A stretch of 58,566 bases of DNA from positions 1 through 58,566 of the IMG/VR virus record IMGVR_UViG_3300038312_000195; one strand, given 5' to 3'. A model generated the notes under the pieces. It did no database searches and was not told where the DNA came from. It saw nothing but the letters and a program-made list of their open reading frames with translations. Origin of the DNA: a virus (taxonomy: Duplodnaviria; Caudoviricetes). A program made the translations under genes and the position numbers. Positions 11,951 through 41,296 of this stretch are shown here, in pieces (position 1 is the first letter of the stretch; each line of letters begins with the position of its first letter).

Positions 11951-11953
11951 TAG

Positions 11954-12026: not shown

Positions 12027-12037
12027 AATAATAGAAA

Positions 12038-16922: not shown

Positions 16923-17047
16923 AACGGACACAGATATACTTACCGGATACACTAATTAGAAAATTAGAAGTCCAATCAAAGGAAAAAGGATTTTCTAAGG
17001 GAGAAGTAATCCGGATAGCAATTGAGGAATATTTTAAAGGAAGCTAA
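16919..17047 (+). CDS. CopG/RHH regulator, 42 aa (not in ORF track)
   Basis: MKRTQIYLPDTLIRKLEVQSKEKGFSKGEVIRIAIEEYFKGS; RBS AAGGAGG upstream. Confidence 0.8.
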   Translation: MKRTQIYLPDTLIRKLEVQSKEKGFSKGEVIRIAIEEYFKGS

Positions 17048-17061
17048 TTGAGCTTCCTTTC
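17036..17061 (+). terminator. Terminator closing the accessory operon
   Basis: AAAGGAAGCT-aattg-AGCTTCCTTT. Confidence 0.6.
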
Positions 17062-17285
17062 TATTTAATCATAAAACGTTTACTCATATAAAAACATGGT
17101 GCGATATAATGCGGGTTCTGGCATGGTTGATTTTATAGGTAGTTAACGTCCTATGTTTGGATATCGGTAATGGCTATTTATCGGGGCTATCTAGTCAAAT
17201 AGCAGACATGCAATTGTTGGGGAAAACAGAGGAAGTAAGGGAGGATGTCTTGCATCCGACCTTACGACATGTATGTTTTAAAACA

Positions 17286-17325
17286 CAGATTCTGACTGAC
17301 TATGTGCATGGTCAAACAGAATCTG
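17286..17325. mobile_element. attP-like site of serine integrase X
   Basis: CAGATTCTG ac TGAC tatg TG catg GTCA aa CAGAATCTG imperfect inverted repeat, 8 bp from the integrase stop. Confidence 0.65.
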
Positions 17326-17333
17326 CAAAACAG

Positions 17334-20353: not shown

Positions 20354-20683
20354 TTAGTCTTCATCAACGAATTCTTGAACCAGTTTCTTTATAATCTCCC
20401 ATTGCTTGTTTGTTAGTTTTGCTACACTACGCATCAAAACCTGTGCTTCAGGAGGAAATTCATCTGCGCTGTTGTTAGAATTGCGAACATTGGTGCGACC
20501 AAGCAAGTAATCTACAGAAACATCAAAATATATAGCAAGCTTGTCAAGCATGACTGAATCAGGCTTACTTTTTCCTGATTCGTATTTTGTATATGTAGTC
20601 CTATCAATTTCAATAACATCGGCAACATCTTGCTGTGTCATTTTCTTTTCATTTCTAAGGTTTCTTAACCTTTCGGGTATCAT
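20354..20683 (-). CDS. CI/ImmR-like XRE repressor (phage X)
   Basis: HTH_XRE pattern, FDVSVDYLLGRT; divergent from cro-like gene. Confidence 0.9.
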   Translation of the reverse strand: MIPERLRNLRNEKKMTQQDVADVIEIDRTTYTKYESGKSKPDSVMLDKLAIYFDVSVDYLLGRTNVRNSNNSADEFPPEAQVLMRSVAKLTNKQWEIIKKLVQEFVDED

Positions 20684-20707
20684 TATACCACCTCTAATAT
20701 AGTATAT

Positions 20708-20803
20708 GTGAAATTAATTCACAAGTAAATGTGAAATATTTGAACAAAACACTTGACAAAGTGAAGAAGCTTCACTTATAATTAAAACGTGAAGTAACTT
20801 CAC
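20708..20803. promoter_or_regulatory. Lysis/lysogeny switch X: GTGAA-N5-TTCAC operators and promoter
   Basis: Operators at 20708, 20761, 20789 (degenerate 20731); TTGACA 20753, TATAAT 20777. Confidence 0.85.
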
Positions 20804-20826
20804 CTTGACTTGGAGGTGTTAAACAA

Positions 20827-21027
20827 GTGAATTGGTTTAAAAAAATACGGGAATCAAAGGGATATACACAAGAACAGCTGGCTACGGTAATAGGCGTTGA
20901 CAGAAGTTTGATCAGCAAGATAGAAAACGGAAGTGCAAGACCTTCACCTGAGAAAGCAAAAAAGTTTGCTGAGTTATTAGGGTTCAAATGGACTCGCTTT
21001 TTTGAACCAAACCAAGAAGCAAGTTAA
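20827..21027 (+). CDS. Cro-like HTH protein (phage X)
   Basis: 66-aa XRE HTH divergent from repressor. Confidence 0.9.
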   Translation: MNWFKKIRESKGYTQEQLATVIGVDRSLISKIENGSARPSPEKAKKFAELLGFKWTRFFEPNQEAS

Positions 21028-21143
21028 TTTTGTTAGGCACTCTTTTTATATATACTCATCTGCAGCCAACGCAGCTTATTACGTCAGCTGCAGAAAACTT
21101 TTTAATTTCCTCGCATATAGTGTATTGATTGGGGGTTGATATT

Positions 21144-21299
21144 GTGAAAAAATCAACTGCAAAAAAAGAAACAGAAAAAACAATACCCGTGTTTAGGTAC
21201 TTTTTAAGCAATGGTAAGGAAATCAAATCACTTGATGATTTGGTTATACCTGTAACTGAAAAAACAGAAACAGCATATCGGATTCTTGCCGAGGCCTAA
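21144..21299 (+). CDS. Small hypothetical protein (not in track)
   Basis: GTG start after G-rich RBS; VKKSTAKK...AYRILAEA. Confidence 0.55.
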   Translation: MKKSTAKKETEKTIPVFRYFLSNGKEIKSLDDLVIPVTEKTETAYRILAEA

Positions 21300-21349
21300 T
21301 AATTTTTTTAATTGAGTTGTGTACAAGCTAAAACGAAAGGGATGATAGC

Positions 21350-21805
21350 ATGACTATTATTACAGAAACAGCAACCGAAAAATGCAAAAGAATGTCTATA
21401 AAAGAGTTTAAAGAAAAGTGTCTTCGGTTTGTCAGAGTTGCAGAGTATATGGAGCTGGTTGATTCATGGGAGAAGCATGTTATATACAATGAATTTAAGT
21501 CCTATAATTCATGTTCTCATGGACTCTCCTCATATCAAGGTAACATCTACTTTGTTGACAGTCTCAATTATCAAAAAACTCCACCAATTGGGATGTATTT
21601 ATTTTCATACAATGAAATCTATAGGGAAGATCATTCAGCATCCTTTCGTTGTAAACATGGTACTTTGTATGAAGAATCCATACTAGCCATATCAAAGTTT
21701 TTTACCTGTTTTAGTAAAAACAAAAATCATTACATTGAATGTATTCTTGAAAGCTACCACACAGAAAGAAATGAGCGAGAGCTGCCCGGAACAGCCCGGA
21801 GTTGA
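21350..21805 (+). CDS. Hypothetical protein
   Basis: 151-aa ORF with RBS; absent from the equivalent position in phage Y. Confidence 0.6.
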   Translation: MTIITETATEKCKRMSIKEFKEKCLRFVRVAEYMELVDSWEKHVIYNEFKSYNSCSHGLSSYQGNIYFVDSLNYQKTPPIGMYLFSYNEIYREDHSASFRCKHGTLYEESILAISKFFTCFSKNKNHYIECILESYHTERNERELPGTARS

Positions 21806-21861
21806 AATGCAGGTCGAATTATTTTATATATAAATCATACATGCAAGGGGGTGAAATATCC

Positions 21862-22296
21862 ATGAAGAGTATTTGCAGGAATATCTATTCATTAGCTAGG
21901 AAATCAGCAGGATTAACTCAAGAACAAGCAGCAGAACTGCTTAGCATCAGTGTGAGATCACTTGCCGACTATGAGTCAGGCAAGACAATACCTCATGATG
22001 ACATAGTATGCAACATGATAGTTAATTACAATTCTTTAGCTTTAGCGTATTTGCATCTAAAAAACAGCACAGAAGTAGGTAGAAAGTATTTGCCAGAAAT
22101 AAACACAACAGGCTTGGCTCAATCGGTTTTACGGCTACATAAAGAAATTGATGATTTAAAGACAGTTAATTCAGACATGCTTGAGATTGCTTGTGATAAC
22201 AAAGTAGATCATCATGAAACAAAAAAGTGGCAGTATGTAAAAAAAGAAGTAAATGACATCGCCGGGGCAGCATTATCACTTATGTTTACGTCTTAA
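21862..22296 (+). CDS. XRE HTH regulator with CII-like C-terminus
   Basis: ARKSAGLTQEQAAE HTH; close paralog 57621..58055. Confidence 0.85.
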   Translation: MKSICRNIYSLARKSAGLTQEQAAELLSISVRSLADYESGKTIPHDDIVCNMIVNYNSLALAYLHLKNSTEVGRKYLPEINTTGLAQSVLRLHKEIDDLKTVNSDMLEIACDNKVDHHETKKWQYVKKEVNDIAGAALSLMFTS

Positions 22297-22310
22297 CTTT
22301 TACGGAGGAT

Positions 22311-22496
22311 TTGCAAATGATTAAATTGGGTTGTTTATCAAAATCAAAACAGGATATGGTGGACAAGCTGGATGAAAAGATATTTATACTCCAGGGGAAA
22401 TGTCGGAATCACAGAGACACAATCAAACTATCAAAGCTATATCGCAAGAGGAATGAAATTATTACAAGGAGGTATACAAATGAACATTATAAATGA
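22311..22496 (+). CDS. Small hypothetical protein
   Basis: Conserved paralog at 58086..58274. Confidence 0.7.
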   Translation: MQMIKLGCLSKSKQDMVDKLDEKIFILQGKCRNHRDTIKLSKLYRKRNEIITRRYTNEHYK

Positions 22497-23010
22497 GCTC
22501 ACATTAACATTTACAATCGGTTTTATATTTGCTCTCTTTTGCGGAATGCAGTTAGAAAAAAGTATAAAAAAAGCCGGTCTTTTGAACCAGCATACAAAAA
22601 ATCTTTCAAGAAAATATTATCATATCAAAGGAGAGCAGTCAATGAATATTGGTGATATTGTCTATGCTGTTGATCTGTACCGCGGTTCTTACATTGCGGA
22701 AGTAGCCGGATTTAGACGTAGTCCTGCAGAGACAATTCAAGTAAGGATATTAGCGTGCCTATCATATCCAAGGCAATACGCTCAACTTTTTCAAGACAAA
22801 ATTGTTGAAAGATACCCATATCCATATGCATCAATACAATCTTACACAAATGACTGTATTGGTAAGTGGGCTGGTGACGTTCCGGAATATGCACAATCTA
22901 TCAGAAACGCACTAAATACTGCGGTAAAAAAGTGTCAACCGTTGGAGCTGCCAGTTATATTACGCCATTTAAATACGAAAGAGGGTGCTTCTGTATGCGC
23001 TGGATACTAA
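22480..23010 (+). CDS. Hypothetical protein with N-terminal TM helix (possible internal start 22642)
   Basis: RBS AAGGAGG before ATG 22480; paralog begins at 58261. Confidence 0.65.
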   Translation: MNIINELTLTFTIGFIFALFCGMQLEKSIKKAGLLNQHTKNLSRKYYHIKGEQSMNIGDIVYAVDLYRGSYIAEVAGFRRSPAETIQVRILACLSYPRQYAQLFQDKIVERYPYPYASIQSYTNDCIGKWAGDVPEYAQSIRNALNTAVKKCQPLELPVILRHLNTKEGASVCAGY

Positions 23011-23086
23011 AGATTTTAAAGCGAAAAAATGAATTACAGGGTGTTAAAATCCTTGTAAGAATCGGCAAGCGCAGAAAAATACTTTT

Positions 23087-23365
23087 TTGAAAGGGTGTGA
23101 GGCTTTGCTTCCAGTGATGCAATCCTGCATTGATGAGATTAATCGATTTAAGAGAGTAAATGTCGGCATGGAACTGCGGTGCACTTACCTCCTTGGCTCA
23201 AAGCGTAGCGAATCAAACCAAATGAGGGCTATAGATTTTTTGGGACCTGTTGTACAAAAGACTAAGTACCTGATCGTTGTTAAAGACAGAGAGACAAAAA
23301 GAATTAACTGTTTATCACTATTTGATTGCATTTGCCATCAGGGAAAGTACAAAATAATTGAATAA
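23087..23365 (+). CDS. Hypothetical protein
   Basis: ORF in early operon. Confidence 0.55.
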   Translation: MKGCEALLPVMQSCIDEINRFKRVNVGMELRCTYLLGSKRSESNQMRAIDFLGPVVQKTKYLIVVKDRETKRINCLSLFDCICHQGKYKIIE

Positions 23366-23433
23366 AAAAAGAGAGTTTCCGCAACAAGCTTCCACTCCAC
23401 TCAACTAAATCTCCTAATTCCATTAAATCATTT

Positions 23434-24009
23434 TTGAATGATTTTGACAAGGGGTGGAAGTGGTTGAATTCTACATATGAAAATATTTTAAGATTGCTCA
23501 GAGCGTACAAGATAAACAAGGTAAAGGTAAAACTGTACGAAATTGAAGTGGAAGGCATTAATGAAATCTTGGCTTCGGGCGCACTTACCGCAATTGAAGA
23601 TGAAACTGACTGCATCGAGGGCATGAGCCTACAGGCACATAAACTTGATGACAGTCCAAAATATCAAAATAATTTATTCTGGAGCAGTACCGAAAGAGCC
23701 GCCCTTGATTATGTGCGTGAAATGTTTTGGTCAGAAGATAGGAATAAGCTCAAAGAAAAAATTAAGGACATCAAAAGTCGCATCAACATTTTAAATATAG
23801 AGATAAAGCAGGTTGATGCAATGCTTGAAGTTTTAAATCGGGAGCAGAAGTTTGTTGTTGAACAATTTTATATTGAGGGCTATCGCTGGCCTGAGATAGT
23901 GGAGCAGTACACTCTTACATATAATCTTGCATATTCGCTCCAAACGTTTTACGCATGGCGTGATAAAGCTTTGTCCTTGATGGAAAGCATCTTGTTTAAA
24001 ACTGCATAA
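23434..24009 (+). CDS. RinA/ArpU-like transcriptional activator
   Basis: Coiled coil then LNREQKFVVEQFYIEGYRWPEI...RDKAL sigma-region-4-like HTH. Confidence 0.6.
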   Translation: MNDFDKGWKWLNSTYENILRLLRAYKINKVKVKLYEIEVEGINEILASGALTAIEDETDCIEGMSLQAHKLDDSPKYQNNLFWSSTERAALDYVREMFWSEDRNKLKEKIKDIKSRINILNIEIKQVDAMLEVLNREQKFVVEQFYIEGYRWPEIVEQYTLTYNLAYSLQTFYAWRDKALSLMESILFKTA

Positions 24010-24183
24010 ACACTAAACCCAAGGTGCCTGAGCCGATGATTTGGTAACCCAGTTGGTATGAGGTGAGGGCGATAATAATAGATTTTATTTATTTTATAGT
24101 TTGATTGAAAAAAACAGCTTTGCCCAGTAGTTTGTTGCCAGCTGGGGGCTACTGGGAAAGCTTCAACGAAAGGAGCATATCAC

Positions 24184-24339
24184 ATGAATAGATTCAAATG
24201 CCCATCATGTAACGGAAATCAATATACTGCAACAAATAGAGCATGGGACTGCATCTACTGTGATCACAAGGGAGAACTCCCTATGATGGAAACGCTTGAA
24301 CCGGAGGAAAACGAAAATGATAAAACAAACATGGCTTAA
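24184..24339 (+). CDS. Small Zn-ribbon protein (not in track)
   Basis: MNRFKCPSCNG...WDCIYCDH; RBS AAGGAG. Confidence 0.6.
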   Translation: MNRFKCPSCNGNQYTATNRAWDCIYCDHKGELPMMETLEPEENENDKTNMA

Positions 24340-24460
24340 CACACCATGGTACGCTGTGTATCTTACGCATGGCAGAGCTCTTGCCATTGTGTTGGCATTG
24401 ATATTGTTTTTGACTGGTGTTTTTGTAATAGGCTTTGGATTGGGGAGGAAGTACAGATGA
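24317..24460 (+). CDS. Small membrane protein (not in track)
   Basis: MIKQTWL...ALAIVLALILFLTGVFVIGFGLGRKYR; RBS GGAGG; ATGA overlap with next gene. Confidence 0.55.
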   Translation: MIKQTWLNTPWYAVYLTHGRALAIVLALILFLTGVFVIGFGLGRKYR

Positions 24461-25134
24461 AAGCTTGGCAGCACAATGAACTTGCAGAAAATTTAGCGGA
24501 TATAAAGGGAACTAACTATCTTGATGTGCCTTTAGGGAGCGTATGGCTGGAAAAACCACAGAGGGCAGATGTGGTGGAAATCAAACCATCATATACCAGA
24601 TTTTGTGTTTCCATATATGAAATAAAGATATCAAGAGCCGATTTTCTGTCAGACATAAGATCGGAAAAATGGAAAGGGTATCTGGAGCACTGTCATAGGT
24701 TTTACTTTGCTGTACCCTCCGGCATGGTTAAAAAAGAGGAAATACCGAAAGAAGCAGGGTTGATTGTACGAGGAGAAACAGGATGGACTACCGTTAAGGC
24801 TGCAAATAATAGATATGGAGAAATACCTTATACTACTTTGCTGTCCTTATTATTTATGCGGCAAAGAATAAATCACTCTAAGCGTAATCGGGAAGCGATT
24901 GCCGAGTTTCTAACAGTCAGCTACAACCGCCAAAAGATGTATAAGAAGTTAGGTCATGAGGTTGGAAATGCATTGCGTAACTTTGACGAATATAAGCAGA
25001 CGAAAAATAATTTTGAATGTGAAATAGAAAAAGTAAGGAAGTGCATTAAGGATGGGCTTGGTATAGATGCGTGGTGGCCTGTTTGGGAACTAAGTGACTT
25101 AGTTAAAGAGATAAAAGCAAAAGCAGAAGCATAG
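24457..25134 (+). CDS. MmcB-like PD-(D/E)XK nuclease-family protein
   Basis: RADV...YEIKISRADFLSD...KW..Y...CHRFYFAVP motif. Confidence 0.75.
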   Translation: MKAWQHNELAENLADIKGTNYLDVPLGSVWLEKPQRADVVEIKPSYTRFCVSIYEIKISRADFLSDIRSEKWKGYLEHCHRFYFAVPSGMVKKEEIPKEAGLIVRGETGWTTVKAANNRYGEIPYTTLLSLLFMRQRINHSKRNREAIAEFLTVSYNRQKMYKKLGHEVGNALRNFDEYKQTKNNFECEIEKVRKCIKDGLGIDAWWPVWELSDLVKEIKAKAEA

Positions 25135-25148
25135 ATGGAGGGTTAGCA

Positions 25149-26126
25149 ATGGCGCGGGCAAGAAATATAAAACCACGATTTTTTATGAATGAGGATTTGG
25201 CAGAATGTGAACCATTAGCGAGATTACTTTTTGCAGGGTTATGGTGTATCGCCGATCGTGAGGGACGGTTAGAAGATAGACCCAAAAGAATTAAAATTGA
25301 AACACTTCCCTATGATGATTGTGATGTAGATGAATTATTGAATGAGCTGCAGGAACATGGTTTTATTCTTCGCTATGAAGCTTCTGGTAATAATTATATA
25401 CAAATAGTAAACTTTAAAAAACATCAGAATCCGCACATAAAAGAGTCAAAGAGCACGATACCACCACCTAAAAAGGAACAAGCACCATGCAATAATAAAG
25501 TTGCACCATACGAGCACAGTACAAGTATAGTGCAAGCACCAGAAAAGCATGAAACAAGCCCTGCTGATTCCCTTAACCTGATTCCTGATTCCCTTAATAA
25601 TTCTTCGTCCGAACTTTGTCCGGACAAGCCGCTTGAAAATCTTAAAGAAAATTCTGAAATTGATGAAAAGCTTGAAGAGCTTGGTGAGCCTGATAATCCA
25701 AAACCGCCTAAAGACAAAGACAAAATTCCTATTTTCGAGGTGGGGTCACAACAATATAAGCTTGCTTTGCTCATGAGGAGCTGCATTCTTAGGAATTTGC
25801 CTAAAGCAAAAGTTCCGGTCGCATCACCGGAAAAACTAAAACGCTGGGCATATGACATTGATTTGATGATGAGGATAGATTGCAGAAGTCCTGACGAAAT
25901 AAAGCAATTAATTGATTGGTCACAAAAAGACCAGTTTTGGAAAGCTAATATTCTATCTCCGGGAAAGCTACGGACGAAATGGGATACACTTGTTGCGCAT
26001 AGAATGCGTGAAATGGAACGGAACAGGGGTGCACCAAAACAAGCCCCACCACAGGCGACTAATTTTCAGCAGCGGAAATATAGCCAAGAAATGTATGACA
26101 AAATTAAAAAAATTGGAATGGGTTAG
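25149..26126 (+). CDS. Replication initiator (replisome organizer)
   Basis: MARARNIKP.FF, LWCIADREGRL N-terminus; FWKANILSPGKLR C-terminus. Confidence 0.85.
   Translation: MARARNIKPRFFMNEDLAECEPLARLLFAGLWCIADREGRLEDRPKRIKIETLPYDDCDVDELLNELQEHGFILRYEASGNNYIQIVNFKKHQNPHIKESKSTIPPPKKEQAPCNNKVAPYEHSTSIVQAPEKHETSPADSLNLIPDSLNNSSSELCPDKPLENLKENSEIDEKLEELGEPDNPKPPKDKDKIPIFEVGSQQYKLALLMRSCILRNLPKAKVPVASPEKLKRWAYDIDLMMRIDCRSPDEIKQLIDWSQKDQFWKANILSPGKLRTKWDTLVAHRMREMERNRGAPKQAPPQATNFQQRKYSQEMYDKIKKIGMG
25450..25596 (+). repeat. Iteron-like repeats in initiator gene (candidate ori)
   Basis: Clustered GCAC(C) motifs and three CTGATTC(C) copies in a low-complexity linker. Confidence 0.5.
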
Positions 26127-26143
26127 TCAGGAGGAGTGAGTAT

Positions 26144-26374
26144 ATGGCATGCAAATGTGCAAAATTTGATACTGACAATGGTAGGTGGGATTGTTCTGTT
26201 TCAGGTGATAATTGTATGTACCTGATTCCTAATTCAAAGCGGTGTGCTGAGGAATGGGGAGAAGGACCGGATGTAAATTCGAAGCAATTATGTCCGAACT
26301 GCAAACGTTACGATGATTGCCCAAATCCAGAATACCGGGAACCCTCTGGGTATTGTGATGATTACGCAACATAA
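26144..26374 (+). CDS. Cys-rich small protein
   Basis: 76-aa ORF with RBS; stop lies inside site A. Confidence 0.7.
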   Translation: MACKCAKFDTDNGRWDCSVSGDNCMYLIPNSKRCAEEWGEGPDVNSKQLCPNCKRYDDCPNPEYREPSGYCDDYAT

Positions 26375-26402
26375 ATCAAGGGCGAAGGAGTGAAATTTCA
26401 TT

Positions 26403-26801
26403 ATGAATCAAGCTTTAGTTAAAAAGTTAACAAAAGTATGGCAAAAATGCCAAACATCCGATCTTGCCATAATATTTGAAGGTTATATGCAAAGCATTAA
26501 GGCAAGGAAGGTAGACAGACGCAGAAATGATAATAAGCATACCTATACAATAGACGGTAAAAGCACAGGCTGGAATAGGGTGCAATGCTACTATCACACA
26601 GATTCTACAAAGTATTGCGAAGAAAATTTATTATTAGTTTTGAGAAAAAAGGCAGGGGACTATTTTATTATTCAGCGGAAAGAGGAAAGAGCTTTTGAGG
26701 TAGATTATAGTGGCGTAAGGCATTACAATGAAAAATTGTTGAAAGAGATTATGAATGAACACAAACCACTATTTGATACCTTAATAAAGCAGTTTTGCTG
26801 A
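26403..26801 (+). CDS. Hypothetical protein (cassette A-B)
   Basis: 132-aa ORF bounded by sites A and B. Confidence 0.75.
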   Translation: MNQALVKKLTKVWQKCQTSDLAIIFEGYMQSIKARKVDRRRNDNKHTYTIDGKSTGWNRVQCYYHTDSTKYCEENLLLVLRKKAGDYFIIQRKEERAFEVDYSGVRHYNEKLLKEIMNEHKPLFDTLIKQFC

Positions 26802-26924
26802 CTCGCAAAATAAAACGAATGCGAAGGAGTGAGGTTATGAAATATAAACCGGAAGATTACAGTATACAGAACACAATGTTTTATTAATGTGCACCTGCGG
26901 GGTGCAGGAAGAGAGGAATAAAAA

Positions 26925-27593
26925 ATGTATTGGAAGTATCTGAAATATGTTTTGAAACACAAATGGTTTGTATTCGTAGAATGCTGTAAACTTGGAATTC
27001 CACTAAGGGGTTTATTGCATGATTTAAGCAAGTTTTTACCGTCTGAGTTTATTCCATACGCACGATATTTTTACGGAAATTACCCCGAAACCCTTACGGT
27101 GTATGAAAAAACTTATCACTGGAAGATGAAAAACAAAGCGGCTATTAAAGACGATTTTGACCTTGCATGGCTGAAACATCAAAAACGCAATAAGCACCAT
27201 TGGCAATATTGGCTTCTTACTATGGATAGTTCCAATAAAGAGTTCACCATACAGGCAATGGGAGATGGATACCCAATGTATCTTTCCCGCAACAGCAGAC
27301 ATTTGGCAGAGTTTGACGATTCCATATTATTCGAAGAAGATAAGGTTTTGCCAAACTTCAACAACGACAATGCCTATATGTACGCCAAAGAAATTCAAGA
27401 CAGACTCAATAAAAGCCCAAAGGTGTTATTAATGCCTTTAAAATATCAGAAAGAAATGCTTGCCGACTGGCGTGGAGCAGGCAAGGCTATCAACGGCAAG
27501 GATGATTCAAAGTCTTGGTATCTGAAGAATAAAGATAACATCATTATTCACCCGAAAGTGAGAGAGTTCATCGAAAAGTCATTAGGATTCTAA
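26925..27593 (+). CDS. DUF5662-like (HD-type) protein (cassette ending at D)
   Basis: HKWFV...LHDLSKF.PSEF, H..RNKHHWQYW, EMLADW motifs. Confidence 0.7.
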   Translation: MYWKYLKYVLKHKWFVFVECCKLGIPLRGLLHDLSKFLPSEFIPYARYFYGNYPETLTVYEKTYHWKMKNKAAIKDDFDLAWLKHQKRNKHHWQYWLLTMDSSNKEFTIQAMGDGYPMYLSRNSRHLAEFDDSILFEEDKVLPNFNNDNAYMYAKEIQDRLNKSPKVLLMPLKYQKEMLADWRGAGKAINGKDDSKSWYLKNKDNIIIHPKVREFIEKSLGF

Positions 27594-27634
27594 TTCGCAT
27601 TATAAAACAAGTGCGTAGAAAGAGAGGTTTGAAA

Positions 27635-28237
27635 ATGTTAGAAAAGATAAACGGTAAGAAAATTGAATTGATGCCTAAAATACCAAAAGAAAACGAGAAA
27701 CTATGCGATACCTGTGACGGAATAGGTTGGCTTTATGATAAGGAAAAAGGATTCATTGAGAAGTGTAGAGATTGCTATGTCGGAGTTATTCATCTTTGTC
27801 ACATCTGCCATAAGCCCGTCAGGGGCATGTGTATGAATAAGGATTGCAGAGCAATTAGGGACGCTGAGAGCGAGGAAAAGGCTCTAAGTAAAGCGATTAA
27901 AGCTGAATACAAAGACGTTCCTCTTGAACATAAGGAAATGCTGTATTCCGAAAGCTACGGATACAACGAGGGTTATTTTTCAGATATTGATGAACTTATA
28001 GAATACTGTGAGGGCAACGATATTGAAGTGCCAAAGCATGTATGGTCTACCGCAAAAACGGAGTTGTCAATAGATGCAGAAAACATAATTGAAAACGCTT
28101 GCGAAGAACTGCATGAGGATGCAAGAGATAACGTTACTGGAGAAAAGGAGCTGCAAGACTTTTTAGATGTTTGGTGTGCTAAACAGACAGGAACAGACAC
28201 ATATACTGTTGACTATAAATATGCCATTACGATTTGA
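27635..28237 (+). CDS. Zn-finger-containing hypothetical protein (cassette D-E)
   Basis: CDTCDGIG...CRDC...CHIC; bounded by sites D and E. Confidence 0.7.
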   Translation: MLEKINGKKIELMPKIPKENEKLCDTCDGIGWLYDKEKGFIEKCRDCYVGVIHLCHICHKPVRGMCMNKDCRAIRDAESEEKALSKAIKAEYKDVPLEHKEMLYSESYGYNEGYFSDIDELIEYCEGNDIEVPKHVWSTAKTELSIDAENIIENACEELHEDARDNVTGEKELQDFLDVWCAKQTGTDTYTVDYKYAITI

Positions 28238-28294
28238 TTTGCTTTATAAAACCGGAACGCAATAATTTAAAAATGAAGAAGGAGTGATATAAAT

Positions 28295-28486
28295 ATGTCA
28301 AACTATAGGGGAAAATATACCAAATGTCGTGAGTGCATACATGTTGTGGCAGCAATGATGATGTTGGTTGAGGTTAAAAAAAGTTGTCCGAAGCACACAA
28401 AATTTAGGAGTATGTTAGCAGTAGATAAGCCAACGTGCGAAGAATGTGAATATTTTGAGGTGGGACGTGAGAATATTATTGATTGA
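28295..28486 (+). CDS. Small Cys-rich protein
   Basis: CREC...CEEC; RBS AAGGAGTG. Confidence 0.65.
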   Translation: MSNYRGKYTKCRECIHVVAAMMMLVEVKKSCPKHTKFRSMLAVDKPTCEECEYFEVGRENIID

Positions 28487-29444
28487 TTTTAACAGCAAAA
28501 TTCCAAATTTAGCATTGATGAAGTTATCTACTTGGCATAAGCAACAAGGGAATAAAGTTTATTTAAATCAATGTGACAATCCAGATAAAGTATACATATC
28601 AACGCTCTTTACATGGGACAAGCCAAAAGTTGAAAAGCTGCTTAAAATGTATCCAAATGCAGAAGTTGGCGGTACAGGTTGGGATATAAAAAAGACATTA
28701 CCTGAGGAAATTGAAAACTGTAAACCAGACTATGACTTATACACTGCGGTTGATATTTATAACCGAATAAAGGGCGGTATAGGTAAAAAAGAAAATAAGC
28801 TTAAAAAGGCTATGGAAATTATTAATGCAGGAATAGGTTTTACCTCAAGAGGATGCATTAGACAATGTGGTTTTTGTTTTGTTCCACCAAAGGAAGGGAT
28901 GCTTCATAAAGTTGGTGAAATAAACGAATTAATCAATCCAAAAAGTAAAGTAATAATCTTACTAGACAACAACCTTACTGCTGATCCGGACTGCATCGAC
29001 AAACTCCATGAAATACGAGATAGGGGATTAATCGTTGATATAACACAGGGCATTGATATACGTCTTATGACTCCGGAAATTGCACAAGCTTTGAGCGAGG
29101 TTAAACATCTGAGAAGCTTACACTATTCGTGGGATCTAATGAGTTTTGAAAAATCCATTTTTGAGGGGATTAAGATTCTTTCAAAGAGCGTTAAACTCTG
29201 GCGGCATATGTGTTTTATGCTAACTGGATATAATACATCATTTGAGGAAGATATGTATAGATTCCATAAGCTGAACGAGCATAACATTAGACCTTATGTA
29301 ATGCCATACAACTTAACTTATCCAACAGAAAAACATCATCATTTTACACGCTGGGTTAATAGTAGGATACATACCGCATGTAGTTTTGAAGAATACGAGC
29401 CATGGGTTAAAGAACAAAAAAGCAATCAATTATCATTTGTGTGA
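28467..29444 (+). CDS. Radical SAM protein
   Basis: PNLALMKLS N-terminus; SRGCIRQCGFC (CxxxCxxC); LDNN. Confidence 0.85.
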   Translation: MRILLIDFNSKIPNLALMKLSTWHKQQGNKVYLNQCDNPDKVYISTLFTWDKPKVEKLLKMYPNAEVGGTGWDIKKTLPEEIENCKPDYDLYTAVDIYNRIKGGIGKKENKLKKAMEIINAGIGFTSRGCIRQCGFCFVPPKEGMLHKVGEINELINPKSKVIILLDNNLTADPDCIDKLHEIRDRGLIVDITQGIDIRLMTPEIAQALSEVKHLRSLHYSWDLMSFEKSIFEGIKILSKSVKLWRHMCFMLTGYNTSFEEDMYRFHKLNEHNIRPYVMPYNLTYPTEKHHHFTRWVNSRIHTACSFEEYEPWVKEQKSNQLSFV

Positions 29445-29455
29445 GGTGCTAGCTA

Positions 29456-29659
29456 ATGAAAGGTGAAAAACATACGGGTAAACGTTGCCATAGTTGCGGT
29501 GAAGAATTGACATCGTGGGATTTACGATGTAGCAAAGCATTAGCATACAAAAACCCAAATTGTGAGAGTTGCATTGCAAAAGAATATGATATTACTGCCG
29601 CTGAATTGCGTAACAAGTTGGAAGACTTTTTCGATATGCGCCCGTGCATTGGGATATGA
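29456..29659 (+). CDS. Small Zn-finger protein
   Basis: CHSCG...CESC. Confidence 0.7.
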   Translation: MKGEKHTGKRCHSCGEELTSWDLRCSKALAYKNPNCESCIAKEYDITAAELRNKLEDFFDMRPCIGI

Positions 29660-30804
29660 GTATGAATAAACTAACAGAAAGACTTTTAGCCGAGGGTTAT
29701 ACAAAAGAAAATCATCCTGACTATGTCAGGTGGTATGGCAACATGGAGGAATTTGAATACACGCCTGAATACCTCGAAACCACAGTTTGGGAAGCTCCTT
29801 GTAGGATTATGCGAAAAGGTGAATTTACTCATGGATATCTGAGTTATGCAGATGTTGATTGGAGAGCAGAAAACGATAATTACAACTTTCATTGTCCTTA
29901 CAATAAAAAAGAGTGTGAACATTTTCACCCGCTACTTAGAGATATTACTATTGGTGCTAAATGTTCATGGCATATGACGGACAAACCTTATGATTATGAC
30001 AACAGTGTCGAAAAGATAGAGGACGAAAGGAAAAGGATTATAGGGAAAAATCTCGAAAAAAAGTTCGGGCATCCTGGAATGATACATTGTGCATGCTGTC
30101 GTATAAACGAAGAAACTCTTGAACCGTATTTTAAATATGAGCCTCGACGTTGTATAAATTTTATGAATAATGGTTGCGACAATAAAACGTGTTGGTGTAC
30201 TGGAAAAGAGCGTGACTTGACTCTTGCCAATATCTATTATGATGTTAGGATTACAACCGAATACAGCAAAGGTTTTATAGTAGAGCCGGTTATCCAGATT
30301 ACTAAGGGTGAAAAGTTATTCGATTCACGAAAGGCAATAACTGACTTAGAACTGTATCTTAAAAAATATCCTGACGCTCCTTTGCAAAAAGAAAAAGGAA
30401 AATCAAAGCATTCGAGAAGGTTATTTTTTGCAAAATATCACGGTGAAAAATATGACCTTGAAATTTTAAGCGTGAGGATTGAAAAGCGGGAAAGCCGGGA
30501 CTTGATGCAAGACCTGCAAGATATTAAAGACGGGATAGAGGTTGTTCATGCCAGTGATTTAACTAAAGCCGTAAAAAAGGATAAAAAGGAACGCAGAGAA
30601 AAATACAAAGGAAAAAAGATAATACGTAGGAAAAAGAAAAATATTGAAAACTGGAAGACTATCTTAAAAAATGATGAGGCAGCAAAGGCATGTGCGGAGA
30701 GAAATAGTGTAAGCATTGATTTTTTAAGAACAGAAGCGGAAAGACAGTTAAGAAAGCGAAACATTTTAATTGAAAAAGAACCTAAGCAATTAAGCATGTT
30801 TTAA
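29644..30804 (+). CDS. Conserved phage hypothetical protein, Cys-rich
   Basis: 386-aa ORF ending in KQLSMF (clamp-binding-like motif). Confidence 0.7.
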   Translation: MHWDMSMNKLTERLLAEGYTKENHPDYVRWYGNMEEFEYTPEYLETTVWEAPCRIMRKGEFTHGYLSYADVDWRAENDNYNFHCPYNKKECEHFHPLLRDITIGAKCSWHMTDKPYDYDNSVEKIEDERKRIIGKNLEKKFGHPGMIHCACCRINEETLEPYFKYEPRRCINFMNNGCDNKTCWCTGKERDLTLANIYYDVRITTEYSKGFIVEPVIQITKGEKLFDSRKAITDLELYLKKYPDAPLQKEKGKSKHSRRLFFAKYHGEKYDLEILSVRIEKRESRDLMQDLQDIKDGIEVVHASDLTKAVKKDKKERREKYKGKKIIRRKKKNIENWKTILKNDEAAKACAERNSVSIDFLRTEAERQLRKRNILIEKEPKQLSMF

Positions 30805-30940
30805 ACAGGAAAGGGGGTTGATCATATGCGCCACATAAAGAAAGGTGGCTAAAAATTGATATATATACACACTACAACACTATGAACACGGCGGGTATTA
30901 GGCTGCCCGCCGTGGATTAAATTTAAGGAGTGATTAATCT

Positions 30941-31840
30941 GTGAATAAAACTAATATTGAATGGTGTGATTATACTTGGAATCCGGTGACTGGATGTCTT
31001 CATGGGTGCGAATATTGCTATGCTAGACGAATAGCAAAAAGGTTCGAAGGTGGTGGGTACGGCAAAGAAATGGGTATGTTTATCGCAAAGCATAGAGACG
31101 ATGCATTTAAGTCACCGTATGTAATAGACGAACCACACTATACACAAACAAAAGATGATTGGTATCGAGTAGCTCCATATCCTTTTGGGTTTGAGCCTAC
31201 ATTTCATAGATACAGATTAAACGAACCGCAACAAGTCAAAAAGCCATCAAAAATATTCGTATGCAGCATGGCTGACCTGTTTGGTGATTGGGTACCGGGG
31301 GATTGGATAGAAGAAGTATTCCGAGCATGTGAAGATGCAGCTCAACATAAATATTTATTTCTTACAAAGAATCCAAAGGGATTAAAATACCCATTCCATC
31401 AGTATTTTAATAACAAAAATTGGTGGATTGGAACATCTGTAACGTGTAATGCAGACCACCAAAGAGCATGGGATTTATTACAGGAAACCACAAGGAAAAC
31501 AAACAAGTTCTTAAGCATTGAGCCTATACACGGTGAGTTTGATTTAGTGAAATATGACCTCTTATACAAAGGATATCCCAAAATAGTGACAATAGGCGAT
31601 TATTACAACTGGGTTATTGTCGGCGCCGAAACAGGCAACCGCAAAGACAAGATTATCCCAAAACGTGAATGGATAGAAAACATTGTTTCAGCTTGTCGAC
31701 ATGCGGATGTGCCCGTTTTCATGAAAGATTCACTTAAAGACTTAATGGGAAAAGAATTTATTCAAGAATACCCAAATAGCCTATGTGGGAGGAAAGAAAA
31801 TGAAAGTGATTTATCTAAAAATCTGGCCAGAATATTATAG
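30941..31840 (+). CDS. DUF5131 (Gp37/Gp68) family protein
   Basis: IEWCDYTWNPVTGC..GC.YCYA, FVCSMADLF, LTKNP, SIEP, WVIVGAETG. Confidence 0.9.
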   Translation: MNKTNIEWCDYTWNPVTGCLHGCEYCYARRIAKRFEGGGYGKEMGMFIAKHRDDAFKSPYVIDEPHYTQTKDDWYRVAPYPFGFEPTFHRYRLNEPQQVKKPSKIFVCSMADLFGDWVPGDWIEEVFRACEDAAQHKYLFLTKNPKGLKYPFHQYFNNKNWWIGTSVTCNADHQRAWDLLQETTRKTNKFLSIEPIHGEFDLVKYDLLYKGYPKIVTIGDYYNWVIVGAETGNRKDKIIPKREWIENIVSACRHADVPVFMKDSLKDLMGKEFIQEYPNSLCGRKENESDLSKNLARIL

Positions 31841-32207
31841 AGCTTCAAAAGCTGGAATTAAACTTTTTGAGATACGAAAGGACGATAGACCTGAGGGGAA
31901 ATATGAGGTTGGTGATATCTTAATACAGCAGGAATATGATCCGCTAACCGGTTATACAGGGTCTGAGGATTTGAAGCATGAAGTAACTTACATACTAAAA
32001 GATTCATCTTTTCTTCCAGGGGGCCATGTTTGCATGAGTCTCAAAGAGATAAAGAAAAATACCTTATTTGAGAAATTTAAAACTATGAGCATACAAGAAA
32101 TGGCAACATGGCTATCAGTATTAAGTAATCACGTAGATTATGAAGATGGAGACTACGATCCTGATATCATGAAAATGCTGCAAAGTAATTTAGTCGAAAG
32201 GAATTAA
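31800..32207 (+). CDS. DUF3850 / ASCH-PUA-like protein
   Basis: LKIWPEYY...G.KLFEIRKDDR...VGD.L...EY motif. Confidence 0.8.
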   Translation: MKVIYLKIWPEYYRASKAGIKLFEIRKDDRPEGKYEVGDILIQQEYDPLTGYTGSEDLKHEVTYILKDSSFLPGGHVCMSLKEIKKNTLFEKFKTMSIQEMATWLSVLSNHVDYEDGDYDPDIMKMLQSNLVERN

Positions 32208-32210
32208 AAA

Positions 32211-32507
32211 ATGAAAATATATATAGCAGGTAAGATAACAGGAAATGAAAATTATAAAAAAGAATTCAAAGAAGCAGAGGATGAATTAATAATGCAAGGG
32301 CATACGGTTCTCAACCCGTCATTTATGCCAATGGGATTTGAAGAAACAGAGTATCATCATGTCAATAGAGCAATGATTGATATTTGTGACGCTATATGTT
32401 TTCTTCCCAATTGGACAGACAGCAAAGGTGCTCATATGGAAATGGGTTATGCTCTCGGAAAAAGAAAACTAATAATGCACTCTACAACAAAGTATAATAA
32501 AAAATGA
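32211..32507 (+). CDS. DUF4406 (nucleoside deoxyribosyltransferase-like) protein
   Basis: IYIAGKITG, VLNP, W.DSKGA.ME motifs. Confidence 0.85.
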   Translation: MKIYIAGKITGNENYKKEFKEAEDELIMQGHTVLNPSFMPMGFEETEYHHVNRAMIDICDAICFLPNWTDSKGAHMEMGYALGKRKLIMHSTTKYNKK

Positions 32508-32529
32508 GATAATTGGAATAGATTATAAT

Positions 32530-32600
32530 AAACCATACTAAAATCATACTAAAACTATACTATTTCTATACTTTTCAATCATTATGCTTTGTGATACTAT
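32530..32600 (+). promoter_or_regulatory. Three 11-bp direct repeats plus extended -10 (candidate activator-dependent late promoter)
   Basis: AAACCATACTA AAATCATACTA AAACTATACTA (32530-32562); TGaTACTAT downstream. Confidence 0.6.
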
Positions 32601-32698
32601 TAAGATGTTAGAATTATATAAAACATAATGAACCGTCCAGGGAAACCGAGGGCGGTTTTTTCATGGAAAGATCTTCATACCTGAGGTGGTGAATTTAA

Positions 32699-33247
32699 GT
32701 GAATTATGTAGAACCAATTAGAGATCCGGAAATGGTCAAAAATATTTGCACATATTTGAAAGAAAAAAATGTAAGGAATTTTATTATGTTCTACACAGGA
32801 ATTTATTCTGGGCTTAGAATATCAGATATCTTAAAACTTCGAGTAACTGATGTTAAAAATAAAAATAGTATTAACATTAGAGAGAAGAAGACAGGTAAAC
32901 AAAAAATTTATGCAATTAACCCGATTTTGAAAAAAGAATTAAAATTTTATTGTGAAGATAAGTTTCTAAGCGAATACCTAATTAAAAGTAGAGAAGGCGA
33001 TAATAAAGCTCTAACAAGAGAACGGGCATATCAGATTATGAAAGATATCGGTAATTATTTTTGTATTCCAGACCTTGGAACACATACGCTCAGAAAAACA
33101 TTTGGGTATCATCACTACATGCAATACAAAGATGTAGTCATGCTACAAAAAATATTCAATCATGCAACTCCAGAAATGACGTTAAGATACATAGGATATG
33201 AACAAGAAAATATTAATAAGAGCATTAAGAACTTTAAAATATTTTGA
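32699..33247 (+). CDS. Short tyrosine recombinase (catalytic domain only)
   Basis: VEPIR, GLRISD, HTLRKTFGYH, FNH, TLRYIG. Confidence 0.9.
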   Translation: MNYVEPIRDPEMVKNICTYLKEKNVRNFIMFYTGIYSGLRISDILKLRVTDVKNKNSINIREKKTGKQKIYAINPILKKELKFYCEDKFLSEYLIKSREGDNKALTRERAYQIMKDIGNYFCIPDLGTHTLRKTFGYHHYMQYKDVVMLQKIFNHATPEMTLRYIGYEQENINKSIKNFKIF

Positions 33248-33497
33248 TATTAATTACTCATAACGCAACTATGATAAACTAATACTTTTGAAAACTGTAA
33301 GATAGCTAAAAGTCAATGCTTGTAGCGCTGTCTATGAGTTAAACAGAAGATAAGATGTGAGTAACTGGATATTTATACATTTTTAAGCGAATAATCGAGA
33401 TAGAATTGATAAACAGATTGACAAAACATAACGCATTAAAGCGTTTTAACATTATGTATAATTATACATTTGCGTTTAAAAAGCGAGAGGAAAAGAT

Positions 33498-33851
33498 ATG
33501 AACATAAAAAATCAGGATGAAGTTGGATGTTGGGTTCAAAAATTAATTGATGAAGACAATCTGCATGCCTTTTATACAAGCAGTGCGTGGTTGAACCTAC
33601 GTAAAGAAACTTTGCGGGAACATAAGAACGAATGCCAAGATTGTAAAAGTAGAGGATTTTATAAAAAAGCAAACCATGTTCACCATGTACAATATGTAAT
33701 AAAGCATCCAAGACTTGCATTGAGTAAGACGTACATATATCAGGATAAAGAGTATAAAAACTTAATTCCGCTTTGCCATGACTGCCATGAGCAGCGACAT
33801 GGATATAGGCAGAAAGAAAAAAAGGAACCATTGACGAAAGAAAGATGGTAG
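33498..33851 (+). CDS. HNH endonuclease (packaging-associated)
   Basis: FY.S.AW, CQDC, VHH, NLIPLCHDCH; upstream of terminase. Confidence 0.9.
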   Translation: MNIKNQDEVGCWVQKLIDEDNLHAFYTSSAWLNLRKETLREHKNECQDCKSRGFYKKANHVHHVQYVIKHPRLALSKTYIYQDKEYKNLIPLCHDCHEQRHGYRQKEKKEPLTKERW

Positions 33852-33869
33852 GTGGTAGATGTTGGTTGG

Positions 33870-33960
33870 ATGAGCAGCACCCCCGGGCGAAATAAATCGC
33901 TTTTTAATCCGGAAGGGCTTGACTCGGCATGGGGTAGACAAGATATAAACTTTGAAAAAC
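33870..33960 (+). other. Probable cos region
   Basis: GC-rich ACCCCCGGGC tract between HNH and small terminase, the usual cos location in HK97-like Bacillota phages. Confidence 0.35.
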
Positions 33961-33982
33961 TCACACGAAGGAGGTGGGGAAT

Positions 33983-34297
33983 TTGGCAAAAAAAACAGAT
34001 ATAAAAAAAGACTTGCTTGACCAATTGGATCGCAACGGAGTATACGGAAAATACTATATAGATCTTGTCAATGATTATATGTCGTTGTGGGAAATTAAAA
34101 ACAAGTTGATCAAAGATATTAAGCTAAGGGGGGTGTCTGTCTATTGGTGTAATGGTGGAGGTCAAGAAGGACATAAGAAAAATGATTCCATCTCTGAACT
34201 CAATAAGACAAATGCTCAGATGCTAAAAATATTAAACGAGTTGGGCATAAAGCCATCCCGAACGGATGGTGAGTCTGATGGAGATATTGAAATGTAG
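33983..34297 (+). CDS. terS: Terminase small subunit (P27 family)
   Basis: DLVNDYM.LW, RGV, N.QMLKIL.ELG motifs. Confidence 0.85.
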   Translation: MAKKTDIKKDLLDQLDRNGVYGKYYIDLVNDYMSLWEIKNKLIKDIKLRGVSVYWCNGGGQEGHKKNDSISELNKTNAQMLKILNELGIKPSRTDGESDGDIEM

Positions 34298-35945
34298 ACA
34301 AAAAGATTATCACCCATACATAGACCAGTATATAGACGACTGCCGCAGCGGAAAAAATATCGTCGGAAAAGAAATCCTTTTGGCGATGGATTACGTTGAG
34401 AGCAAACTTAATAATCCGGACGTATTTATAGACACAAAAAAGATCGATAAAGCAGTTGAACTGATGGAGAGATATTTTGAGATATCTCTTTTTGATTGGG
34501 AACTATTTGTAACGGCATGTATCCACTGCTTTTATAAATCTGATGATACCGTTGTGTTTAGTACTATCTTTATCATGGAGGGTAGGGGTAATGGTAAGAA
34601 TGGTTTTATAAGCCCTATCGCGTGGTATCTGACAACTCATTATCATGGTATTAAAGGATACAATATTGATATCGTTGCAAATGCTGAGGATCAAGCAAAA
34701 ACATCCTTTGAAGATATTTATCATGTGCTTGAAAGAACCTGGGCAAAATCGAAGAAATTTTTTTACAAATCGCTAGTAAAAATTGTGAACCTTATTACAA
34801 AATCTTATATTAAGTTTAATACAAGCAATGCTAAAACGAAGGATAGCAAGCGTACTGGATGCTTAATATTCGATGAGGTACATCAATATGAAAACTATGA
34901 TCAAATAAAAGTATTTACCTCCGGATTTGGTAAACGAAAACACGCTAGGACATTTTACATTACTACTCAAGGAAATGTTCGTGAAGGTGTCCTAGATGAT
35001 ATGTTGGCAATAACTAGAGATATCCTAAAAGGTATAATCAAAGATTTAAGATGGCTTCCACTAATATATAGAATTGATGCAGAGGAAGAAGCCAAAGATC
35101 CTAATATGTGGCACAAGGCTAATCCATCATTAAAGTATTTGGCAACACTTAGACTTGAGATGGAGCAGCAATTTATAGAAATGAAATATAAACCAGCTAT
35201 AGAGGAAGAGTTTTATACCAAGCGTATGAACTGGCCGAAGGAAAACAGGGAGTTGCAGGTAACCGAGTGGGATAATATCAAGGCAACAAATAGGCCGCTG
35301 CCGGATCTGACTGGATGGGATTGTACTGTAGGCATTGACTATGCGTCGTTGCGAGATTGGGCGGCAGTCAACTTCCATTTCCGAAAAGGTGACTTGCGTT
35401 ATGATTTCGGCAGGTACTGGATTTGCACTCAAAACCCGGAACTGTCAAGGATAAAGGCTCCGTGGCGAATATGGGATACATGCGTACCGGTTGACGATGT
35501 GGAGATATCACCGGAACTGCTGACGGATTACATCTCAGAGACAGCACAGAAATATAATCTCAAGATAATTGCTCTTGATAATTACCGGTATGCGTTATTG
35601 AAAGACGCCCTTGAGAAAATAGGGTTCGACCCAAAAGAGCGGAAAAATGTATATCTTGTCAGGCCACGCGACATTATGAAGGTTGAGCCCGTGATTGAAA
35701 GCTGCTTTAATAAGCAGTTTTTTGTATGGGGCGACAACCCGGCGTTACGGTGGGCAACGAACAACACAAAGCGTGTCCGGTCTGGCAAAAAAGAGGGAAC
35801 GGACACCGGAAACTTTTACTTTGCAAAAATCGAGGCAAAGAGCAGAAAAACAGACCCATTTATTGCTTTAGTCGCAAGTATGGTAGTTGAGGACGAACTT
35901 GGCACCGGGCAAAGCGCATATGACGACTTGCCCGTGATCACATAA
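34266..35945 (+). CDS. terL: Terminase large subunit
   Basis: GRGNGKNG Walker A, IFDEVH, KANPSL, GIDYA, KTDPF. Confidence 0.95.
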   Translation: MVSLMEILKCRQKDYHPYIDQYIDDCRSGKNIVGKEILLAMDYVESKLNNPDVFIDTKKIDKAVELMERYFEISLFDWELFVTACIHCFYKSDDTVVFSTIFIMEGRGNGKNGFISPIAWYLTTHYHGIKGYNIDIVANAEDQAKTSFEDIYHVLERTWAKSKKFFYKSLVKIVNLITKSYIKFNTSNAKTKDSKRTGCLIFDEVHQYENYDQIKVFTSGFGKRKHARTFYITTQGNVREGVLDDMLAITRDILKGIIKDLRWLPLIYRIDAEEEAKDPNMWHKANPSLKYLATLRLEMEQQFIEMKYKPAIEEEFYTKRMNWPKENRELQVTEWDNIKATNRPLPDLTGWDCTVGIDYASLRDWAAVNFHFRKGDLRYDFGRYWICTQNPELSRIKAPWRIWDTCVPVDDVEISPELLTDYISETAQKYNLKIIALDNYRYALLKDALEKIGFDPKERKNVYLVRPRDIMKVEPVIESCFNKQFFVWGDNPALRWATNNTKRVRSGKKEGTDTGNFYFAKIEAKSRKTDPFIALVASMVVEDELGTGQSAYDDLPVIT

Positions 35946-40856: not shown

Positions 40857-40858
40857 TA

Positions 40859-41290: not shown

Positions 41291-41296
41291 TAACTA

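Follow-up and report, generated by a model that had tools for sequence, protein, structure and literature searches.

What is the short element that recurs, always in the same orientation, at the junctions between small accessory genes in the early operon of a temperate phage? The question is raised by an IMG/VR virus record of 58,566 bases from fermentation metagenomes (the whole stretch is here called the window), in which a row of genes at 26144-28300, present as a single copy, carries five such elements, designated sites A to E. Our preferred answer, which we hold with about even confidence, is that these are recombination sites bounding single-gene modules for exchange inside one early operon. 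Comparison of assembled DNA from two phage lineages shows that genes are gained, lost and swapped exactly at the sites. From the shared arms at the locus of an Xer-type enzyme, from co-occurrence of enzyme and sites across unrelated phages, and from a joint formed without guiding homology, we infer that this enzyme carries out a site-specific exchange. The layout of the sites is putatively 7-6-7.

All five early sites are on the plus strand in one orientation, and each overlaps a stop codon or begins 2 nucleotides (nt) after one. Site A (26365-26384, CGCAACATAAATCAAGGGCG; left arm CGCAACA, centre TAAATC, right arm AAGGGCG) contains the TAA stop of a gene for 76 amino acids (aa) and abuts an AAGGAG ribosome-binding site (RBS). 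Site B (26804-26823, CGCAAAATAAAACGAATGCG; centre TAAAAC) starts 2 nt past the TGA of a 132-aa gene, also abuts an AAGGAG RBS, and is extended by flanking T and A to a perfect TCGCA/TGCGA. Site C (26872-26891) is a variant, CACA-N12-TGTG with centre TTTTAT, which contains the stop of a mini open reading frame (ORF) and resembles the Clostridium-type left arm described below. Site D (27596-27615, CGCATTATAAAACAAGTGCG; left arm CGCATTA, centre TAAAAC, right arm AAGTGCG) starts 2 nt past the TAA of a DUF5662 gene and abuts the next RBS. Site E (28240-28259, TGCTTTATAAAACCGGAACG), 2 nt past the TGA of a 200-aa Cys-rich gene, has kept the left arm and centre, and its right arm is degenerate. A first-pass annotation, made from the letters alone, had placed directly oriented sites here, on or within 2 nt of stop codons, with A, B and D running into the next RBS; reading of the sequence bears out all of this, with starts at 26365, 26804, 26872 (the variant), 27596 and 28240. 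The sites are the sole spacers longer than 20 nt in 26.1-28.3 kb, the remaining early junctions being tight or overlapping. At B, D and E an in-frame TAA of the site centre lies exactly four codons past the gene stop (26799-26815, 27591-27607 and 28235-28251), and at A the centre TAA is itself the gene stop; the register between site and reading frame is therefore fixed. A left-arm-like CGCAATA, the same as the left arm of fibre-locus site F3 and of an early site in a close relative (G007), is found at 28258-28264, at the end of site E, which suggests a fusion of two half-sites at this point.

The sites had also been credited with a common CGCA-N12-TGCG geometry, and this claim stood for B and D. 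The exact pattern has four matches in the window (26804, 27596, 48145 and 48798) where 0.41 were expected, a number reached in 0 of 100 shuffles. With one mismatch allowed it is at chance level (11 matches versus 9.9 expected), and geometry alone is therefore no basis on which to judge A, C and E. A 13-nt pattern taken from the four sites behaved in the same way, its exact matches being those four only and its one-mismatch matches numbering 17 versus 14.5 expected. We also built a matrix whose training set was limited to the arms (columns 1-7 and 14-20) of five fibre-locus sites, of which the window supplied three and a relative (G006) two. Among 117,092 positions this matrix ranks D 1st, A 6th and B 8th, and these are its three best matches outside the training sites, in agreement with the likeness between early and fibre sites that the first-pass annotation had reported. 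C and E rank 154th and 1452nd; they are backed only by context, that is, by their stop-adjacent position and shared core, and E is in addition the point of divergence in one of the sequencing runs (X8). Judged by these sequences, the early and fibre sites are one family with left arm CGCAwwA, right arm AAGkGCG and six variable central bases. The centres are TAAAAC or TAAATC at the early sites versus GGCAGA, GGATTA or GGATAA at the fibre sites. The symmetric bases of the 20-mer are positions 1-4 and 17-20, and the three arm bases beside the putative centre are asymmetric. Every early and fibre site scores higher on the plus strand, giving a single orientation, and the sites are confined to 26.3-28.3 kb and the fibre loci.

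Three fibre-locus sites, all on the plus strand, are present in the window. F1 (8363-8382) is at the stop of a 556-aa fibre gene, approximately 210 nt 5' of a recombinase gene; F2 (48145-48164) lies in frame within a 303-aa fibre gene, at the junction of its conserved N-terminal and divergent C-terminal parts; and F3 (48798-48817) is at the stop of a 68-aa ORF, again approximately 210 nt 5' of a recombinase gene. A fibre site marks this N-terminal/C-terminal junction in the window, in G006 (twice, at 27917 and 36001) and in G007 (at 46442). The fibre genes of the three phages are conserved upstream of the site and unrelated downstream, and at the second copy in G006 another upstream gene is joined to the same downstream module. 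The pattern resembles an exchange of the receptor-binding end at this site.

To see how the array varies within its own lineage, we turned to public sequencing runs, 20 of which contain part of 25100-29500. Logan contigs of four (X2, X3, X4 and X8, from three studies) were compared with the window over 23500-31500; X3 belongs to the same study as the probable source sample. The counts that follow are among 24 listed loose ends out of 40, and stretches for which contig cover was missing in a run, such as 26971-27504 in X8, were not counted as absent. Eleven of the 24 fall in 26144-28300, and 10 of these 11 are inside a site or at most 7 nt from one (26371, 26379, 26391 in two runs, 26799, 26814, 26824, 27603, 27617 and 28252), the exception being 26250, within the 76-aa gene. 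The breaks with different DNA on the upstream side (26371, 27603) come no later than site position 7, and those with different DNA on the downstream side (26814, 28252, 26379, 27617, 26391) no earlier than position 11. This pattern is what exchange within the six central bases would be expected to leave behind.

The alternative neighbours found in other runs carry arms of the same family. Site E as found in X8 has a right arm close to the consensus, and at D the left arm of X8 retains its complementarity to the right arm of D. One contig of X3 (contig 14) is identical to the window over 590 nt and then joins 26810 to 26879, skipping 26811-26878 (68 nt). The joint connects position 7 of B to position 8 of C with an ambiguity of 1 nt, and it removes the mini-ORF unit; its shorter side measures 30 nt, which is the k-1 overlap of the contig graph, and likeness was set to 85. 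With 1 nt of ambiguity, there was no homology to guide the joining of B and C. The expectation of the first-pass annotation that gene content in relatives would differ precisely at the sites was thus upheld in contigs of the window lineage and, for a related motif, in Clostridium prophages.

In the latter, homologues of the 132-aa gene (62-71% identity) were found at 11 IMG/VR loci and in one Clostridium botulinum genome contig. CGCA-N12-TGCG does not occur at the homologous junctions of these 12 loci. Most AT-rich loci carry a 13-nt motif, CRYAATNCAAAKA, which represents left arm plus centre and is located 0-3 nt past stop codons, on both sides of the 132-aa homologue and at neighbouring junctions; no strict copy is present in two loci (L010 and L011). 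Five whole records (241 kb) together contain 16 copies of the motif, every one on the sense strand and within the early accessory region, and a reversed-pattern control gave 0 matches. One record has nine copies in 2.5 kb, each ahead of a gene for 53-137 aa. Some copies possess a right arm, in the form TCACAA-N10-TTGTGA followed by AAGGAGTGA; this form has the same 22-nt span as site B of the window, with G:C replaced by A:T, and L010 contains a hybrid form bearing the left arm of the window.

The ends of homology blocks were compared among nine of the twelve loci (positions 2501-9000 of each), omitting L010 and L011, where a strict motif is lacking, and L096, which nearly duplicates L008; blocks shorter than 80 nt or below 75% identity were dropped. 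After clustering, 21 of 99 block ends were inside a strict motif, versus 0.9% of random positions, and 29 of 99 were within 10 nt of one, versus 1.9%. Individual pairs illustrate the pattern. L002 carries a 1.2-kb insert between two motif copies; at the corresponding place L009 has a single hybrid copy, whose left part is that of the first L002 copy and whose right part is that of the second. Two blocks are common to L005 and L007, one of 424 nt (99.8% identity) and the 132-aa block (97.4%); each ends in motifs, and the DNA between the two is unrelated.

Which enzyme might act on these sites? The recombinase genes next to F1 and F3 encode a 329-aa Xer-type tyrosine recombinase, in two copies on the plus strand (copy 1 at 8594-9583 and copy 2, taken as the candidate enzyme, at 49031-50020). 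The best model for the protein is NF040815, matched above the cut-off (246.9-247.6 bits, the upper value for copy 1, versus 220), and in alignment the catalytic R, K, HxxR, H and Y are kept. Integron-integrase models stay well below their cut-offs (TIGR02249, 95.8 versus 265 bits; NF011946, 54.4 versus 435 bits). Together with the lack of attC-like hairpins, these scores support the earlier statement that this is no classical integron. A second candidate is a 182-aa protein encoded at 32699-33247 on the plus strand, which consists of a tyrosine-recombinase catalytic domain only. The integrases proper appear to be large serine recombinases. Each 329-aa recombinase gene is preceded by a leader (8454-8593 and 48887-49030; 71% identity between the copies) with several inverted repeats and no Rfam match. 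A comparable hairpin-rich leader is located 5' of the recombinase gene in another record (G008); such a leader may be an attenuator or exert translational control of the recombinase.

When the 239 ORFs of the window were compared with five Clostridium-type records (G001-G005), few matches were obtained. The 132-aa module was found in 5/5 records, the 329-aa recombinase in 3/5 (approximately 45% identity), the 182-aa recombinase in 1/5 and a large serine recombinase in 1/5. Six other ORFs matched at 21-43% identity; these are mostly structural or lysis genes and include the cI-like repressor (30% identity, 1/5 records). In 4 of the 12 loci (L002, L007, L008 and L096) a homologue of the 329-aa protein (45% identity) is encoded within the motif array or at its 3' end. 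In the close relatives G006 and G007 the recombinase (89-91% identity) lies between fibre and holin, with the same fibre site at the point where the fibres diverge, and G007 has one early-type site after a stop codon.

These observations can be accommodated in a simple scheme. In each site, seven nucleotides of left arm (CGCAwwA) and seven of right arm (AAGkGCG) would enclose a centre of six (TAAAAC or TAAATC). Exchange would take place within or at the edge of the centre, so that the left arm would be kept by the upstream gene, and the right arm and RBS by the downstream gene. In this way related phages might gain, lose or exchange modules. The enzyme would most likely be the phage's own 329-aa recombinase, whose gene adjoins the sites with the same arms at the tail-fibre junction, and it is plausible that the differing centres stop recombination between the early and fibre loci. 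The first-pass annotation had suggested that a recombinase may exchange accessory genes, and this is partly supported: gene content varies exactly at the sites, and shared arms, neighbourhood and co-occurrence suggest the 329-aa enzyme as a candidate. More tentatively, and with somewhat less than even confidence, we propose a portable module-exchange system of Firmicutes phages, in which an Xer-type recombinase and short sites with different centres would serve two channels, the receptor-binding end of the fibre and the early accessory genes, and which would have spread with its cassettes between unrelated lineages. Among phages, such a system would correspond to integrons and dif modules, providing cassette exchange between co-resident phages.

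Several observations weigh against recombination at the sites. The evidence consists of assembled contigs only, from which recombination is deduced rather than caught in action. The sites are short, and their symmetry is in the outer four bases of the arms, unlike dif-type Xer sites, in which it is in the inner part (PMC6449649). Among the listed breaks, those at 28549, 28564, 28701, 30611, 30633, 30823 (three runs), 30921, 30942 and 31378 are away from sites, and the sites are therefore not the sole places at which these phages differ. Sites B, D and E have one common centre, and a joint between them was absent among the joints listed for the assembled contigs of the four runs. In the Clostridium-type prophages, most motif copies have no recognisable right arm, and one replacement (L003/L012) ends at a motif on the right and at a bare stop codon on the left. 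Mosaic junctions that fall at a gene boundary without any site are seen at this left end, at 30823 and in a pair of metagenome contigs (L135/L136), which have in common a 132-aa homologue plus 30 nt downstream and diverge right after the RBS. No PF00589 protein is present in G003, a record rated 100% complete with at least six motif copies, and no homologue of the 329-aa protein in G002, which has eight strict motif copies in locus L005. The recombinase gene in relatives is itself bracketed by motif copies and may therefore be cargo. Finally, the exact early-site pattern was found at three IMG/VR loci, namely G007 and two inside coding regions, which by a rough estimate is about chance.

We also asked what signals the sites might contain. 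None of 48 promoter-like matches in 20500-34500 (48.1 expected by shuffling) and none of 14 terminator-like matches in the same interval is at a site; the absence of any sigma-70-like match there in the promoter scan fits the first-pass description of the units as promoterless single genes. RNA folds of the five site regions were no better than those of shuffled sequences (z of 0.39, -1.17, -1.23, -1.64 and +1.82), and the whole window has no Rfam match at E up to 0.1. Two candidates were rejected. The motif as a -10 element or alternative-sigma promoter has no -35 element, is too close to the RBS in several relatives and has no match in the scan, and an RNA hairpin or known RNA family at the sites was ruled out by the fold scores and the Rfam null.

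The main rival reading, which we consider rather unlikely, is that the motif is an expression signal or linker needed by each early accessory gene, such as a regulator site or a translation or RNA-processing signal 5' of the RBS, and that genes are shuffled by homology or microhomology recombination between the copies at the junctions, as happens with PeSLs. In its favour, every copy lies on the sense strand, close against the stop codon, and those of the window lead directly into the RBS; arrays are also present in phages without the recombinase, and gene-boundary junctions are common in phages without any site. There is a precedent in PeSLs, which are described as repeated regulatory cassettes that drive shuffling and form mini-circles (PMC2839356). 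However, the searches for promoters, terminators, stable folds and Rfam families were all nil at the sites, and sites with the same arms occur within or at the end of fibre coding sequences, where an expression signal makes little sense. The shared core amounts to merely 6-13 nt or so, and the B-C joint has 1 nt in common. Moreover, the only regulator that the two lineages have in common by similarity is the weakly similar cI-like repressor, seen in a single one of the five records.

That repressor also enters an explanation which we regard as improbable, namely that the sites are stoperator-like silencers by which the bound immunity repressor blocks elongation through the accessory genes in a lysogen. 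The asymmetry of the sites, their orientation with transcription and their location in short intergenic spaces are all found in L5-type stoperators (PMC9283540). The latter, however, number more than 20, are distributed genome-wide and occur also at the early promoter (PMC9283540), whereas only two loci carry the sites here, and the immunity region (20.5-21.4 kb) contains none of the 25 best matrix matches. Silencing would, in addition, leave the fibre-gene sites and the exact exchange junctions unexplained. Least probable, and in our view very improbable, is that the resemblance reflects chance, or the descent of a few duplicated junctions, without present function, with breaks falling there because these are the only spacers. 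The chance-level count for the one-mismatch geometry agrees with this, and every spacer longer than 20 nt in 26.1-28.3 kb has a site, which makes site and spacer inseparable in the window. Yet the exact count was never reached in the shuffles, the cross-locus matrix put D, A and B on top, the related oriented motif stood at 16 versus 0 in the control in unrelated phages, and the alternative neighbours in other runs bear arms of the same family. We therefore retain recombination sites bounding exchangeable modules as the preferred reading, at the even confidence given above.

The search for further relatives yielded little. No relative was detected in INPHARED, either by DNA search or by protein search with the 132-aa gene, and none of the 200-aa gene in IMG/VR. 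The replication initiator retrieved three loci only, none with sites. No site was seen in the flanks of DUF5662 homologues at 25 loci inspected of 80 retrieved, and the site therefore does not travel with the DUF5662 family. Five metagenome contig loci with 132-aa homologues (59-74% identity) were likewise without such a site, and neither G008 nor G009 has a convincing site family. A genus-level pattern search around the Clostridium relative, which covered only 9 genomes, gave counts near control. A description of such a phage array was not found in the literature searched, within a limited set of papers and terms.

The array is part of a rightward early operon whose genes run nearly gapless from a promoter at 20753-20782 to a hairpin at 30887-30914. 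The promoter, on the plus strand, is of the sigma-70 consensus type (12/12 in the promoter scan), is flanked by a cI-like repressor gene (20354-20683, minus strand) and a cro-like gene (20827-21027), and is likely the early promoter that feeds the array. The hairpin, with 11 pairs, is the strongest intrinsic-terminator-like match on the plus strand in the terminator scan and likely the end of the operon. The gene order is MmcB-like nuclease, replication initiator (25149-26126, phrog_16167), 76-aa, 132-aa, mini-ORF, DUF5662, 200-aa, 63-aa and radical-SAM gene, and the array genes are all on the plus strand. Its upstream border is the 76-aa Cys-rich gene (26144-26374, phrog_38560), whose TAA stop is within site A. 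Module 1 is the 132-aa gene (26403-26801, phrog_30861), which is of unknown function and has homologues in Clostridium prophage arrays. Module 2 is a 16-codon mini-ORF with its own RBS (26838-26888), probably a remnant unit. Module 3 is the 222-aa DUF5662 gene (26925-27593; PF18907, E 1.2e-37), and module 4 is the 200-aa Cys-rich, zinc-finger-like gene (27635-28237). The first-pass gene calls held for DUF5662 and for the 132-aa unknown; the zinc-finger call was borne out only as a likeness, the 200-aa protein having no family match. The array ends at the 63-aa gene (28295-28486), because this gene overlaps the start of the radical-SAM gene.

The record as a whole holds approximately 1.4 genome lengths, positions 1-22770 being parallel to 40774-58566 at 74-99% identity. 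These duplicated stretches might reflect a tandem pair of related prophages or an assembly that is a chimera of two strains. The tail genes at 85-8453 and 40858-48886 are dissimilar, despite the parallel stretches around them. The first copy also has about 5.5 kb between the lysin and serine-integrase genes (11260-17330) that is missing from the second; this segment encodes an SNF2/ResIII helicase, a PAPS-reductase/DUF3440 protein, a GNAT acetyltransferase and unknowns, and may be a defence or DNA-modification island.

The usual explanation of phage mosaicism is selection acting on the products of rare illegitimate or relaxed homologous recombination. In the two unrelated phage lineages considered here, a short oriented site is found at every junction of an accessory row, variants differ by whole genes with endpoints in the site, and a family of Xer-type recombinases travels with the sites. 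If the enzyme acts on the sites, phages would own a dedicated, programmable route by which to trade accessory early genes and host-range modules. This would bear on the spread of counter-defence genes and of receptor specificities, and it would provide a compact natural cassette-exchange system.

Among known systems, the array is similar to an integron in that promoterless single-gene units form a row of one orientation, with a site at or near each stop codon, precise gain and loss, and an associated tyrosine recombinase gene. The attC sites of integrons are long imperfect palindromes that fold as hairpins, whereas the sites here are 20 nt in length. The enzyme is Xer-type rather than IntI, attI and Pc are not evident, and the array is located inside a phage early operon; in the window 20 kb separate it from the enzyme gene, which in relatives is found at the array's 3' end. 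In dif modules the sites alternate in orientation, whereas all sites here are direct. The pdif modules of Acinetobacter plasmids are nevertheless similar, being discrete accessory modules that are bounded by short Xer-type sites and shuffled between replicons (PMC6449649; PMC7399989). They have 28-bp sites (11-6-11) whose inner palindrome is conserved (PMC6449649) and on which host XerC/XerD act; those described here are shorter and have outer-arm symmetry, and the candidate enzyme is phage-encoded.

Other phage elements show partial likeness. In T4-type phages, PeSLs are short conserved elements that flank non-essential ORFs in a hyperplastic region and mark indels or replacements between relatives (PMC2839356). 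A PeSL consists of a strong sigma-70 promoter and a terminator stem-loop and is recombined by homology (PMC2839356), unlike the sites here, which coincide with no promoter-like or terminator-like match. The stoperators of cluster A mycobacteriophages are asymmetric sites of approximately 13 bp, oriented with transcription in short intergenic spaces (PMC9283540); they differ in being repressor-bound, genome-wide and present at promoters as well, whereas the sites of the window are at two loci and coincide with exchange junctions. The Xer-like recombinases of the Tyrovirus gp50 type are also encoded among late genes, next to a site with inverted repeats and a 6-bp core, and their role is left open in that report (PMC9703825). 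There, however, a single 11-6-11 site is read as a possible attP (PMC9703825), whereas here a family of sites occupies module junctions at two loci. Shufflons and invertase switches differ in that their sites are inverted and flank invertible segments, all early and fibre sites here having one orientation. Thus, the array works like an integron or a set of dif modules and has the defining features of neither.

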